Below, piece by piece: positions 14,147 through 18,435 of a DNA stretch of 64,000 bases. A program made the translations under genes and the position numbers. Position 1 is the stretch's first letter. Each line of letters starts with the position of its first letter. The notes beneath the pieces were generated by a model. That model was not told where the DNA came from, made no database searches, and worked only from the letters and a program-made list of their open reading frames with translations. Source of the DNA: an uncultured Gammaproteobacteria bacterium (GTDB lineage: Bacteria > Patescibacteriota > Patescibacteriia > UBA1558 > GWA2-36-10); the NCBI GenBank assembly GCA_964638415.1, contig CAZWYP010000002.1, positions 97,997 through 161,996 on the forward strand, given 5' to 3'.

Positions 14147-14151
14147 ATAAT

Positions 14152-14180
14152 AAAACTCCCTAAAATTTAGGGAGTTTTTG
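14152..14180 (+). terminator. Rho-independent terminator after ndk.
   Basis: AAAACTCCCTAAAATTTAGGGAGTTTTT hairpin plus T-run. Confidence 0.7.
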
Positions 14181-14239
14181 CTAATCTTAGTCTATTTGAT
14201 TTTGGACTTTATCAGTGATAAAATTAAAGGGTTCAAGGA

Positions 14240-14443
14240 GTAAATATTTGCAATTCTACAATTGCGCTAACAGGGATCTCAATATTTACCAAAATCGTGG
14301 TTTTGGTGTGCGAGAACCCACCTGACTTTCAGGGGTTAGCAAATAATTTACTGGCTTGAACATCTAAGAAACCATAAGATAATTATGGGGAACAAGAAGT
14401 AAAAGCCTGCTCTTTGGCAACTAGCCAATCAGCGGGCTTTTTG
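14240..14443 (+). ncRNA. Candidate small RNA or leader of about 200 nt, of unknown class.
   Basis: ORF-free interval. Possible promoter TTGATT-17-TAAAAT (14204-14232). Ends in a hairpin AAGCCTGCT...AGCGGGCTTTTT (14402-14443). Relatively GC-rich internal hairpins (GGTGTGCGAGAACCCACC). Confidence 0.2.
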
Positions 14444-14476
14444 ATATGATAAAAATATAAAAATTAAATAAAAAAT

Positions 14477-14818
14477 ATGCAACTTATTATTCGTTGGTTA
14501 ATTAATGCTTTAATTTTATTATTAGCAGCTTATTTAATCCCGCAAATAACAGTAGAGAGCTTTTATGCCGCTTTGATGACGGCTCTGGTTTTGGGCATTG
14601 TCAATGCTTTAATCAGGCCGATTATTATTATCCTGACTTTGCCAATTAATATCTTAACACTGGGATTATTTACTTTAGTCATTAATGGTTTGCTAATAAT
14701 GTTTGTCGCTAGCTTTGTTAAAGGTTTTGCGGTAGCTGGATTTTGGCCGGCTGTCTTATTGTCCTTAATCCTATGGTTAGGCTCCTGGCTGACTAATGCT
14801 TTGTTGTCAGACAAATAA
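14477..14818 (+). CDS. DUF360 / phage-holin-family-4-like small membrane protein.
   Basis: 113 aa with four hydrophobic helices. Typical YvlD-like architecture. Confidence 0.5.
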   Translation: MQLIIRWLINALILLLAAYLIPQITVESFYAALMTALVLGIVNALIRPIIIILTLPINILTLGLFTLVINGLLIMFVASFVKGFAVAGFWPAVLLSLILWLGSWLTNALLSDK

Positions 14819-14820
14819 AA

Positions 14821-14858
14821 AATCCCCGCTTGAAATTTAATCCGGCGGGAATTTTTAA
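14821..14858. terminator. Bidirectional terminator hairpin between the DUF360 gene and rpmB.
   Basis: A-run, TCCCCGC...GCGGGAA hairpin, then T-run. Confidence 0.6.
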
Positions 14859-14864
14859 TAGTAG

Positions 14865-15139: not shown

Positions 15140-15769
15140 ATGTTATTTGAGTTATTATTTAAAAACCAAGAGCTGTTTTTGACCATTATTTTATCCATTA
15201 TTTACGCTTTGACCATTCATGAGTTTGCCCATGCCTGGGCCGCAACCGCTTTAGGCGACCAAACAGCAAAATATGCCGGTCGCTTATCTCTTAATCCTTT
15301 GCGCCATTTGGATTTTTTTGGAACCCTGATGCTGGTTTTTGCTGGATTTGGCTGGGGCAAGCCAGTTCCGGTTAATGTTTATAATTTACGCTGGAGCCGG
15401 TGGGGGGAGGCGGTTGTTTCACTCGCTGGGCCAGTTAGTAATTTTTTAAGCGTTATTTTTTTTATTATTCTATTCTCTTGGATCGGGCCCTTACTGCCGC
15501 CTAATAATTTATTATTCATTTTCCTTTCCAGTTTGATTATTGTTAATGCTATTTTGGGAATTTTTAACCTCATACCGATTCCGCCGCTGGATGGCTCTAA
15601 GATCTTATTTGCTTTCTTGCCGGATAGATTTAATCATCTCAAGCAGCAATTGTCTGTTAATGGTATCTGGATCCTCCTGGCATTATTAATCTTGGACGAT
15701 TTGACTCGTATTAATATTTTCGGACGGATAATAGATGGTTTTCTCAATATCATCTATTACTTCCTTTAA
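15140..15769 (+). CDS. Site-2 protease family (peptidase M50) membrane metalloprotease.
   Basis: HEFAHAWAA HExxH motif within a TM helix. Polytopic. About 209 aa. Confidence 0.7.
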   Translation: MLFELLFKNQELFLTIILSIIYALTIHEFAHAWAATALGDQTAKYAGRLSLNPLRHLDFFGTLMLVFAGFGWGKPVPVNVYNLRWSRWGEAVVSLAGPVSNFLSVIFFIILFSWIGPLLPPNNLLFIFLSSLIIVNAILGIFNLIPIPPLDGSKILFAFLPDRFNHLKQQLSVNGIWILLALLILDDLTRINIFGRIIDGFLNIIYYFL

Positions 15770-15781
15770 TTAATAATTATA

Positions 15782-15813
15782 ATAAGCCGGTTGCTTGACA
15801 AACCGGCTTTTTT
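15782..15813 (+). terminator. Rho-independent terminator after the M50 protease gene.
   Basis: AAGCCGGTT-gcttgaca-AACCGGCTTTTTT. Confidence 0.7.
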
Positions 15814-16380
15814 ATATTATGGTGAGAATATAAAGCGTTCTTTGCACGTAATTCACCTGAAAGCGCTGCTGCTTACATGCTAAGTGTAAGGTCAGGATTA
15901 GTCCCCTGGCCAAAGCAATTACCATGTCTATGCGTGGAGCACTTTCCTTGGCGCTTGCCTTGGTAGTACTAAAAATCTTTTTTCCAGAGGTTTCCGAACT
16001 TCTGTTGAAAATTATTATTAGTGCCCTAGGCATTCTCCTAGAAGCTATTGATCAAATACAGCTAACCTCAGGTTAGCACCACCATATTTAGACTTCTGCT
16101 CCGGCAGAAGTCTTTTCTTGACAAAAACAATATTTATCTGTATTTTAGTATAGATATATGAGTTCCAATTAAATTTGACTATAGTCAGCAATCCGTCGCT
16201 TACAGTTTGGGTATGGCCAAAAGTTCAGTCTATACTGGTCAAAATTTAGATCTGACTTACCTCCTCACTGTCCTCGGCGCGCCCGCCTTGATGTAGATTG
16301 CCTGCTGGCAATTCTGATTTGAACGCTGACTTAGTCATTAGCCCCTCTTGTGTTATGGCAGGAGGGGTGTTTTTTATCTC
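15814..16380 (+). other. ORF-poor, GC-enriched segment with two terminator-like hairpins (16090-16118 and about 16340-16378). It may hold one or two small RNAs of unknown class.
   Basis: No ORF of 60 aa or more on the plus strand. The only minus-strand ORF (15812..16033) has atypical composition. Hairpins AGACTTCTGC-tccg-GCAGAAGTCTTTT and GCCCCTC...GGAGGGGTGTTTTTT. Local GC is well above neighbouring genes. Confidence 0.25.
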
Positions 16381-16408
16381 TTGACAAAGTTTTTATTTTT
16401 TGTATAAT
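16381..16408 (+). promoter_or_regulatory. Near-consensus sigma70 promoter (TTGACA-16-TATAAT).
   Basis: ttgacaaagtttttattttttgtataat. It drives the ORF-free transcript below. Confidence 0.55.
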
Positions 16409-16414
16409 ACTATG

Positions 16415-16940
16415 GTTACCTCATGGTACGTCCTCTAAAATATTTGATTTGAAGTCAGCTCAATTCTTCAAAATTCTTGCCACATCAGGCTCACAGCTGT
16501 CCGCGCGTTGGTCCACCTCCTTATGAGGATATTGCACCACAAGCCGGAATTACAGACCTGAAACGTGCTCATGATGTGATTGTGAGGTTTTGAGCAATTG
16601 CTTGTTCGGTAATGACAGGAATTCTGTCGTCTTGCACTGGCAACGGTAGTAAGCCTACAAACAAACTGTCATTGATTAGAACCCGTCTCCGCTGAAAGGA
16701 GGGAGACAAAACGATTGTATTTCAATCTAGGATTAGCCAGCTAATATGAGTCATTTGGAGTATTCCGAAGTGGCCGCACACTATAGGCTGAGCATTTTGG
16801 GCATTTTACATGGCGCCCTATTTTCCTGATTGAAGTAGTTGAGCTGACTCATTTTTTTGAAAGTCTGCCGGCATTTTCTCCGGTGTTGGTGATGTTGCCA
16901 AGCAGACTTGCCAAAACCCGATAGCGTTTACGCCATCGGG
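16415..16940 (+). ncRNA. Candidate large structured ncRNA of about 525 nt, class unknown. Alternatively a MITE-like element.
   Basis: It lies between a consensus promoter and an intrinsic terminator (AAAACCCGAT...ATCGGGTTTTCTTTTT at 16904-16940). No ORF of 60 aa or more on either strand. GC-rich stems. An 11-bp long-range complement pairs 16453-16463 (AGTCAGCTCAA) with 16839-16849 (TTGAGCTGACT). No clear RNase P, tmRNA or SRP signature was found. Confidence 0.35.
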
Positions 16941-17021
16941 TTTTCTTTTTGACAATATTTTTTAATTAAATTAAGCTTAATTTCAGTCCATAGTTCTTAT
17001 TATTTTTGCAAGGAGACAGTT

Positions 17022-17558
17022 ATGCGTAGCTGGTTTTTGGCTTTGATCATGTTGGTTGTTGCTCTTCCATGTTTCGCTCAGATTAATGTGGATTTCAACA
17101 TTGGTAGCCAGTTTTCTTGGGTAGAGCAAGGTACGGAAGTATCAATTACTGTCCGTTCTGCCTATTGGCGGCCATATCTGGATTCGGTGGAAGTAATTTT
17201 GGATCCTGATCCTGATCCTGTGTTTGCAGACTTAGCTCCCAGTTTAGGGTATTTGGATCCTGATCAATATCCGGTGATACAGATCAATTGTGCATCTGGC
17301 CCCAGTGATTTTGGCTACGAAATGAATGTGATGATCAATGAAGATCTTGGCTTGGCTGGGCATGCTCCTGATTCCGCTCTGGTTATAGCTACCGTTGACT
17401 TTGTTGTACCCTATAGCCTGCAGCCAGAAACTGAATTCATTTTAGGCATTGTATTTTTTGGCTGGTCAAATAGTCCACCGGTCAATTGCTACCCAAGTGT
17501 TTGTTTTGATGTCGGGTGCACAGTGGTAACTCCTAGTTACCAAGCTATGCTCAGATAG
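17022..17558 (+). CDS. Secreted hypothetical protein with a signal peptide, DPDPDP motif and Cys pairs.
   Basis: MRSWFLALIMLVVALPCFAQ signal peptide. Codon usage is more GC-rich than the ribosomal genes. Confidence 0.45.
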   Translation: MRSWFLALIMLVVALPCFAQINVDFNIGSQFSWVEQGTEVSITVRSAYWRPYLDSVEVILDPDPDPVFADLAPSLGYLDPDQYPVIQINCASGPSDFGYEMNVMINEDLGLAGHAPDSALVIATVDFVVPYSLQPETEFILGIVFFGWSNSPPVNCYPSVCFDVGCTVVTPSYQAMLR

Positions 17559-17576
17559 AGCTCCTTTTTACCGCTT

Positions 17577-17610
17577 GCCCGCTTAAACCTATGGTTTAGG
17601 CGGGCTTTTT
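17577..17610 (+). terminator. Rho-independent terminator.
   Basis: GCCCGCTTAAACC-tatgg-GGTTTAGGCGGGCTTTTT. Confidence 0.7.
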
Positions 17611-17612
17611 GC

Positions 17613-17640
17613 TTGACAAACTTAGATACAGTAATATAAT
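17613..17640 (+). promoter_or_regulatory. Consensus-like sigma70 promoter (TTGACA-16-TATAAT, with a second TATAAT 5 nt downstream).
   Basis: cttgacaaacttagatacagtaatataattaatataatt. Confidence 0.5.
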
Positions 17641-17736
17641 TAATATAATTATTGTTCAATTATTTACGCCGTCTGCCTGCATAGGGCGACTATACTTGTT
17701 GGAAAACAGCCACCCCAAACCTCGGAGGAATCCTCT

Positions 17737-17820
17737 ATGATTGTGACGTCCAAGACGAACAAGAACACGACGGCCAAGAAGAAGAACGGCAATTTCGGCG
17801 CCAGCGCGGCCATCACCTAG
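17737..17820 (+). CDS. 27-codon GC3-rich small ORF (MIVTSKTNKNTTAKKKNGNFGASAAIT) with a GGAGGA Shine-Dalgarno sequence and its own terminator.
   Basis: GGAGGA lies 7 nt upstream of the ATG. Codons acg/tcc/aag/aac/gcc/ggc are atypical for this AT-rich genome. Followed by a GGTACG-tcag-CGTACC hairpin and terminator 17872-17909. Confidence 0.3.
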   Translation: MIVTSKTNKNTTAKKKNGNFGASAAIT

Positions 17821-17871
17821 TCGGCGCGCCAGCCGGCAAAAGTGGTACGTCAGCGTACCAAACCTTAACCA

Positions 17872-17909
17872 AGCCCCCTGAAGCTTCACCTTTTGGGGGC
17901 TTCATTTTG
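17872..17909 (+). terminator. Rho-independent terminator upstream of the rpsL promoter.
   Basis: AGCCCCC-tgaagcttcacctttt-GGGGGCTTCATTTT. Confidence 0.6.
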
Positions 17910-18015
17910 CTCTAAGTATTGACTTACTAAATTTAATATGCTACTTTATGGTAGCAATTTAAGGCAAAATTTGCTTTTTTATTTAATTTAAAAATTTACT
18001 AATCGGCACATCAAT

Positions 18016-18435
18016 ATGCCAACAGTCAATCAATTATTAAAAAAACCAAGAAAAACCGTTAAGGTTAAGACTAAAACCCCAGCTTTACGTGTGGTTTTAA
18101 ACAGCTTGAGACGTCGTCGTCATGAGTTGCCTAAAGGCGCTCCGTTTAAGCGTGGTGTTTGCGTCAAGGTTACTACTGTCACTCCTAAGAAGCCTAACTC
18201 CGCTTTGCGTAAAATCGCCCGTGTCCGTTTGTCCAATGGCATGGAAGTTACTGCTTACATTCCCGGCGAAGGCCACAATCTGCAGGAACACAGCATTGTG
18301 CTTATCCGTGGCGGTCGTGTTAAAGACTTGCCTGGCGTGCGTTACCATGTAGTCAGAGGAGTATATGACACTCAAGGAGTACAAAACCGCAAACAGGGAC
18401 GCTCCTTGTATGGTGCTAAAAAAGACAAGAAATAA
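18016..18435 (+). CDS. rpsL: 30S ribosomal protein S12, with an insertion of about 15 aa near the N-terminus.
   Basis: PTVNQL...[22 protein letters not shown]... Confidence 0.95.

Follow-up and report, generated by a model that had tools for sequence, protein, structure and literature searches.

The 64,000-nucleotide stretch of contig CAZWYP010000002.1 analysed here (the window) carries, immediately upstream of the ribosomal protein gene rpsL, a compact unit built around a small open reading frame (sORF) of 27 codons. All of its elements lie on the + strand: promoter, leader, Shine-Dalgarno (SD) sequence, reading frame, two hairpins and terminator (Table 1). Its closest neighbours are an orphan gene whose product is probably secreted, the gene of an M50 protease and rpsL itself, which starts at 18016 and is followed by rpsG and fusA. 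A lineage-specific insertion of 2.2 kb (15770-18015), placed between the M50 protease gene and an unchanged rpsL promoter, contains five promoter-to-terminator units, of which the sORF unit comes last. Its own promoter is one of just two perfect consensus matches in the window, and eight bases separate its TTGACA from the terminator of the preceding gene, which encodes 178 amino acids (aa). An initial annotation had described a promoter, a leader of about 90 nt, a GGAGGA sequence, an ATG with its reading frame, a GGTACG/CGTACC hairpin and a terminator, and each was found in its place; the proposal that the sORF has a promoter and a terminator of its own also holds, the whole being an independent promoter-to-terminator unit.

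Table 1. Features of the sORF unit and its boundaries, in window coordinates
Feature	Position	Strand	Remarks
Intrinsic terminator of the upstream 178-aa orphan gene	17577-17605	+	13-bp stem, then TTTTT; 5' boundary of the sORF unit
Sigma-70-type promoter, TTGACA-16-TATAAT	17613-17640 (TTGACA 17613-17618, TATAAT 17635-17640)	+	12/12 consensus matches
5' leader, about 90 nt	17647-17736	+	predicted start site near 17647
Shine-Dalgarno-like GGAGGA	17724-17729	+	GGAGG 8 nt (GGAGGA 7 nt) before the ATG at 17737
sORF, 27 codons plus TAG (17818-17820)	17737-17820	+	peptide MIVTSKTNKNTTAKKKNGNFGASAAIT
Stop-codon hairpin, GUCGGC-GCGCCA-GCCGGC	17820-17837	+	begins on the last base of the stop codon; followed by AAAAGUGG at 17838-17845
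Second hairpin, GGUACG-UCAG-CGUACC	17844-17859	+	identical in L081
Rho-independent terminator, AAGCCCCC ... GGGGGCUU and U run	17871-17909	+	stem within 17871-17904, GC-rich
Separate promoter of rpsL, TTGACT-N14-TGc-TACTTT	17919-17947	+	3' boundary of the sORF unit, outside it

The unit is found at four loci: the window, L081 (one copy), L085 (three copies in two transcription units) and L168 (two copies in one unit). The six copies outside the window, some of them in tandem, lie directly upstream of the rpsL promoter in three related assemblies, and the units of each relative have a near-consensus promoter and a terminator. At L081, from a Logan assembly, the RpsL protein is identical to that of the window, the DNA is 91% identical overall, and the sORF unit is almost unchanged. 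L085, with 89% RpsL identity, encodes MIVRSKNTSVCTPATKKSAIDKKAERGAQMRFI and MIVLGCESTTLSKKDTAKKATKKSTIGARVRST behind one perfect promoter and MYVSNTNVACNIVVWESAIKKTASVVYY behind a second (26-54 and 584-612, both 12/12), with the -10 region AATAATATAATTAATATA identical to that of the window; its terminators, at about 505-545 and at 834-872, were read from the sequence and form helices in the folds, and are absent from the list produced by the terminator scan. L168, also with 89% RpsL identity, encodes MRVPNTTKSISLKTATKKMDSAKAIGRNTC and MIVFSSSSKKAKITKATDEPKSGAAVRA between one promoter (172-200, 11/12) and one terminator (692-724), the latter found by the terminator scan. Most copies begin with ATGATTGTG, and they run to 27-33 codons. 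None has been called by any gene caller. A DNA profile made from the window copy and copy 3 of L085 recovers the other two L085 copies, with E = 8e-10 and 0.15. The range of the family is narrow: the unit is absent from some 175 further loci with rpsL or M50, none of the 160 loci with 64-83% RpsL identity that were scanned in genome and metagenome contigs with rpsL as the anchor has it, and a collection of 15 billion proteins contains not one of the seven peptides.

The SD sequence sets the sORF apart from nearly all of its surroundings. An SD core (GGAG, GAGG or AGGA) lies upstream of just 2 of the 59 window genes, and none is present upstream of rpsL, rpsG, fusA or tuf. Besides that of the sORF, the only strong SD is the AAGGAG of the orphan gene at 17022, which belongs to the same insertion. 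In all seven copies of the sORF, GGAG begins at -11 to -14 from the ATG; such strict conservation of sequence and spacing argues that the GGAGG does something.

The codon usage, described as anomalous in the initial annotation, is indeed extreme. The G+C fractions at codon positions 1, 2 and 3 of the sORF are 0.26, 0.48 and 0.93, and the last of these (GC3) compares with 0.371±0.046, and a maximum of 0.44, among 49 window genes. It is the highest value among all small ORFs of the window, and the sORF alone among the intergenic ones combines high GC3 with an SD. The third position exceeds the first and second in all seven copies, with GC3 ranging from 0.64 to 0.93. Selection for high expression, which had been offered as one possible cause, is not supported: codons ending in T are the preferred ones in rpsL, rpsG, fusA and tuf (ACT 49, ACC 29, ACA 3, ACG 2; GCT 79, GCG 7; TCG 0), while the sORF copies use the rare ACG for 9 of 23 threonines, GCG for 10 of 22 alanines and TCG for 4 of 20 serines, so the GC3 excess is not an expression-type codon bias. 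The enrichment extends over the transcript as a whole, with a G+C fraction of 0.46 in the leader, 0.55 in the ORF and 0.56 in the 3' untranslated region (UTR), against 0.24 and 0.16 in the adjoining intergenic DNA, and the units of L085 and L168 show the same trend. We infer that selection acts on mRNA G+C content (stability, hairpins) and is satisfied within the ORF at synonymous positions, which would explain both the odd GC3 and the rare codons. As a separate observation, the gene for L28 (14865-15044, - strand) has a GC3 of 0.63, compared with 0.34-0.49 for the other ribosomal protein genes checked, and is the sole annotated-type gene of the window that shares the direction of the sORF's bias.

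Frame 0 is open in all seven copies; stop codons interrupt frame +1 in all seven and frame +2 in four. Taken alone, an ORF of this size is within chance (P = 0.53 for at least 27 codons in shuffles), and what recurs in the relatives is the combination of promoter, SD, ORF of 27-33 codons, GC3 phase and terminator. Dinucleotide shuffles give P = 0.06-0.10 per copy for ORF length; since the copies are related to one another, the product of these values, 3e-7, exaggerates the significance. It is hard to see why an RNA-only element would carry a 3-nt compositional phase tied to a single frame. A start signal, an open frame and a frame-specific composition, the marks of the generic class of sORF-encoded proteins, are all kept in the relatives. 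The comparison of ORF with RNA conservation proposed in the initial annotation thus finds that ORF, start region, length and codon phase recur, which fits neither a chance ORF nor clear RNA-only conservation.

The peptides keep their first three residues, their length, a composition rich in S, T, N, A, K and G, a positive charge and a loose T-A-K-K / x-G-A pattern. The net charge is +4 to +6 in five of the six distinct peptides, and +5 in that of the window. Six of the seven are hydrophilic, with a grand average of hydropathy of -0.26 to -0.74, and the MIV start is the only hydrophobic stretch. This does not suit the earlier description of the product as toxin-like, nor was an antisense promoter found: a simple consensus scan of the minus strand over 17640-17910 gave no promoter-like site. 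A nucleotide motif, TCGGCG, that seemed to be conserved in different frames proved to be two peptide motifs (S-A-I and x-G-A), each of them frame-consistent.

The reading favoured here, to which we give a probability of roughly 0.6, is that the sORF is the translated, fast-evolving gene of a lysine-rich, basic microprotein of 27 residues, a member of a lineage-specific tandem family whose mRNA is also constrained. The consensus sigma-70-type promoter would drive a monocistronic transcript of about 260 nt from a free-standing small gene, comprising in order the 90-nt leader, GGAGG, the 27-codon ORF, the hairpin abutting the stop codon, the second hairpin and the intrinsic terminator that precedes the rpsL promoter. 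The ORF would most likely be translated into a small, hydrophilic, lysine-rich peptide with a net charge of +5, and the signals suggest that the gene is probably strongly expressed. Copies would duplicate in tandem and diverge quickly, within a variable M50-rpsL insertion of a few Parcubacteria/Komeilibacteria-like bacteria of the candidate phyla radiation (CPR). The host itself is taken to be a CPR (Patescibacteria) bacterium of that type from the source names of its best RpsL and M50 protease homologues. Selection appears to act on initiation and ORF length, on the composition and charge of the peptide over its exact sequence, and on the G+C content of the whole mRNA. As to activity, charge and composition prompt the guess that the peptide binds a polyanion (RNA, the ribosome or DNA).

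Several observations weigh against this reading. Transcription and translation are both deduced from sequence. When each locus in turn is left out of the peptide profile, its copies are picked out of a set of 430 sORFs at marginal E values only (0.07-0.7), and the window peptide is not recovered at all; pairwise BLOSUM scores in frame 0 are no better than in shifted frames. Of the three substitutions that separate the sORF of the window from that of L081, one is synonymous and two are not; at third positions, 2 of 28 sites have changed, compared with 43 of 295 in rpsL and rpsG, with no significant difference either way. The copies come from four loci only and are not independent. The DNA profile described above matches L168 in the start region alone, with a non-significant E = 1.1, and that locus is linked to the family by its position, its architecture and a nearly identical start region, GGAGGAUCCCAAAAAUGAUUGUG. 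There is also the matter of the ribosome: about half of the Parcubacteria lack the anti-SD motif in their 16S rRNA according to a published survey (PMC9297842), and if the host, whose 16S gene lies outside the window, is among them, GGAGG cannot act as an SD.

A rather unlikely alternative, though one with a good deal of evidence to be weighed, is that the RNA is the functional product, as a trans-acting small RNA (sRNA) or a dual-function RNA, and that translation of the sORF is incidental or a part of RNA regulation. The transcript forms a GC island between promoter and terminator, like structured RNAs in AT-rich genomes, and conservation is poor in the peptide but present in the initiation region and in some UTR motifs. 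The leader motif CGCCGTCTGC at 17667-17676 has a counterpart, CGCC(G/A)TCT, common to both L085 leaders; this, the initiation region and the 3' UTR motifs are kept at least as well as the peptide. By reading of the sequences, a motif resembling YCGGC-N(1-4)-AAGU(A)GG follows the stop codon in four of the six distinct copies, with a weaker version, UCGGCUGAUGUG, in copy 2 of L085, and AAACCUUNACCA is present in three of the six (the window, copy 2 of L085 and copy B of L168). In L081 the stop-codon hairpin keeps five of its six stem pairs (GUCGG/CCGGC), with the changes in or beside the loop, and the sole change in the terminator also falls in its loop; in copy 3 of L085 the same hairpin reads GUCGA-AGC-UCGGC, with one compensatory double change from G-C to A-U. 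The + strand fold of the window unit is mildly better than shuffles (z = -2.0), and across the units the z-scores are mildly negative, from -1.4 to -4.1.

Over 17609-18015 the unit differs from that of L081 at about 15 positions, mostly in hairpin loops and beside the start site; for the same pair, the third codon positions of rpsL differ at 23 of 140 sites (16%) and the upstream gene by about 30%. Other intergenic DNA nearby is equally conserved between these two (0 of 106 and 1 of 86 positions changed), so the low divergence is not specific to the unit. A 5' hairpin is seen at the equivalent leader position in the folds of L085 and L168 and is weak in the window, and the second hairpin of the window was not seen in L085 or L168. 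Beyond generic hairpins, structure is not conserved between species, and the sequences are too few for a covariation test; coming from four loci, the points of RNA conservation are anecdotes rather than covariation statistics, and a dual-function RNA is compatible with them. An RNA-only product gives no reason for the frame-locked GC phase, the conserved SD-ATG spacing or the length of 27-33 codons. Rfam offers no match either: none at the gathering threshold over the whole window, so that the covariance search proposed in the initial annotation yields no family for the interval, and at a permissive E-value over 17500-18050 a best match to His_leader (RF00514) at 24.2 bits, against a threshold of 49, aligned to the terminator hairpin only. 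ARAGORN detected no tRNA or tmRNA.

Dual-function sRNAs that encode a peptide include RNAIII with delta-haemolysin, SgrS with SgrT and SR1 with SR1P. The sORF unit resembles them in its short, terminator-ended transcript with a tiny ORF and conserved non-coding segments. It differs in that no base-pairing target or seed has been identified and no Rfam family matches, and in that the ORF and start region are here the parts most consistently kept.

The sORF unit is not a leader of rpsL, because rpsL keeps its own promoter and 5' UTR hairpin, also in relatives that lack the unit. The promoter, TTGACT-N15-TATGCTAyTyT, and the hairpin are kept at ten loci, six of them without the unit; the loci compared include the window (17919-18015), L084, L085, L086, L168, L169, L173, L176 and L182. 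In the window the hairpin lies at about 17960-17980, downstream of the sORF terminator. At the six unit-free loci, no gene or a single additional one lies between the upstream gene and the rpsL promoter. Relatives with 86-89% RpsL identity typically have the order L28 (- strand), M50 protease, a spacer of 85-135 nt and rpsL-rpsG-fusA, with an additional gene of 214 aa between M50 and rpsL at L086 (553-2000); with the M50 protease gene as the anchor, other relatives likewise have rpsL directly behind it.

These arrangements bear on a second alternative, a cis-acting leader-peptide attenuator in which translation of the rare-codon sORF controls read-through of the terminator into rpsL-rpsG-fusA. 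In every case the unit directly precedes rpsL in the same orientation, it uses rare codons, it gives the weak His_leader match, and the hairpin beginning at the stop codon would be melted by a terminating ribosome. Leader-peptide attenuators such as that of the His_leader family share with it a promoter, a short ORF with rare codons and a terminator upstream of an operon. An attenuator is nevertheless improbable, since the conserved promoter of rpsL lies downstream of the terminator and unit-free relatives keep that promoter and the 5' UTR. L085, moreover, has two complete tandem units, with 100 nt between the last terminator and the rpsL promoter. The folds show no conserved antiterminator pairing, the copies share no regulatory run of one codon type, and the His_leader match is to the terminator hairpin.

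The rpsL hairpin has points of its own. Most relatives have it as GACUUUAAAGC-loop-GCUUUAAA, and some changes between loci look compensatory (for example AAGCA/UGCUU against AAGCCC/GGGCUU); together with the promoter it may be an unrecognised leader element of the str operon of CPR bacteria.

It seems very unlikely that the unit is functionless in itself and represents either a chance ORF or imported or mobile DNA in decay. It does sit in a lineage-specific insertion at a variable junction, next to an orphan gene, and its SD and GC3 bias are foreign to the genome. Promoter, SD, ORF and terminator are nonetheless intact in genomes whose RpsL differs by 11%, and the unit is nearly invariant between the window and L081 despite the divergence of rpsL third positions and of the upstream gene given above. 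GC3 has not drifted towards the host value; since the bias has persisted across species, it appears to be maintained rather than freshly imported, and the persistence of both foreign traits argues for selection over recent import. Searches with blastn against phage and plasmid collections gave no match, and a scan of viral contigs for the start-region pattern gave three chance matches with unrelated ORFs.

The idea that the real gene is a 77-aa ORF on the opposite strand (17656-17889, minus), which has the host-like phase of high GC1 and low GC3, can be dismissed: antisense ORFs are open at all loci, one of them called by a gene finder in L168, and show weak mutual similarity (E = 0.004-0.07), but the ORF has no promoter or SD, begins inside the terminator and runs through the leader, is frameshifted in L081 by two 1-nt indels that alter both ends of the product, and stays open there only opposite the sORF, an expected by-product because the third codon positions of the sense strand are nearly devoid of A.

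Small proteins are systematically missed in annotations, above all in uncultivated CPR bacteria. Bacterial sORF-encoded proteins of at most 50 aa, with their own promoters and terminators, have been catalogued in E. coli, Salmonella and Staphylococcus. The window family is like these in its free-standing unit of about 260 nt, its strong ribosome-binding site, its fewer than 50 codons, its neglect by gene callers and its narrow range. It differs in having no Pfam, NCBIfam or PDB relative, in its fast-diverging tandem copies, in its rare-codon GC3 and in carrying an SD in an SD-poor genome. No known family matches the peptides in Pfam, NCBIfam, PDB or Rfam: Pfam and NCBIfam gave no match at E <= 10, and the profile search of PDB gave two noise matches (E = 0.8 and 9.9), neither of them ribosomal. 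The suggestion that the sORF encodes a divergent small ribosomal protein (bL34, bL36, bS21, bS22, bTHX and others were considered) therefore finds no homology support, and the multi-copy, fast-diverging pattern fits it poorly. Literature searches for small proteins of CPR bacteria turned up no account of this family.

A partial parallel comes from the SD-blind Bacteroidia, where a single gene, rpsU (encoding bS21), is reported to be strongly SD-led and subject to autoregulation (PMC13000453, PMC7797042). The sORF is similar in its small basic product, in being a rare SD-bearing gene and in adjoining ribosomal protein genes, and it differs in having no bS21 homology and in being multi-copy and variable. 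By analogy, the SD could limit translation to a particular state of the ribosome, and the peptide might be a CPR-specific regulator or accessory component, associated with the ribosome or rRNA and tied to the str operon; we regard this as a long shot.

The family offers a clean comparative example in which a consensus promoter, an SD in an SD-poor genome, frame-locked rare-codon GC3, tandem duplication and rapid divergence come together beside the str operon. If it is expressed as strongly as its signals suggest, its product could rank among the more abundant ones in these cells. The family could further serve to examine whether Parcubacteria retain working SD-dependent initiation; the finding has no bearing on a long-standing open question.

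The rest of the insertion has features of its own. The 178-aa ORF (17022-17558, +) has a signal-peptide-like N-terminus, MRSWFLALIMLVVALPCFAQ; its protein has no homologue but itself among 5.8 billion protein clusters, and about 30% of its DNA differs between the window and L081, in contrast to the nearly invariant units on either side. Before it lie 1.25 kb (15770-17021) with no ORF longer than 75 aa and with three more promoter-to-terminator units, whose promoters begin at 15795 (10/12), 16118 (10/12) and 16381 (a perfect 12/12) and whose terminators lie at 16090-16113, 16341-16368 and about 16907-16935, the next TTGACA following within a few bases of each. They are candidates for additional cassettes, of small genes or sRNAs, within this insertion; Rfam at a permissive E-value gave nothing above noise over 15760-17030. 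The first of the three contains an ORF of 50 codons (15924-16076, +) with no SD, encoding a hydrophobic peptide, MSMRGALSLALALVVLKIFFPEVSELLLKIIISALGILLEAIDQIQLTSG, that has the look of a small membrane peptide.

In this clade the M50-rpsL junction is a hot spot of variation, with sORF cassettes in the window, L085 and L168. At L181 (1927-2247), the closest relative with the M50 protease as anchor (76% identical), a different promoter and gene (MFDVKRWSS...) follow M50. Farther upstream, the spacer between NDK and L28 extends over 320-800 nt with no called gene in several relatives (14147-14864 in the window, 643-1460 in L176 and 1187-1509 in L169). Finally, three RpsL homologues (P0001, P0002 and P0004, from L082 and L083), on short ENA contigs, are 198-200 aa long, about 60 residues more than usual, and outscored the identical protein of 139 aa; the additional residues do not lie at the N-terminus, the gene starting as rpsL does.

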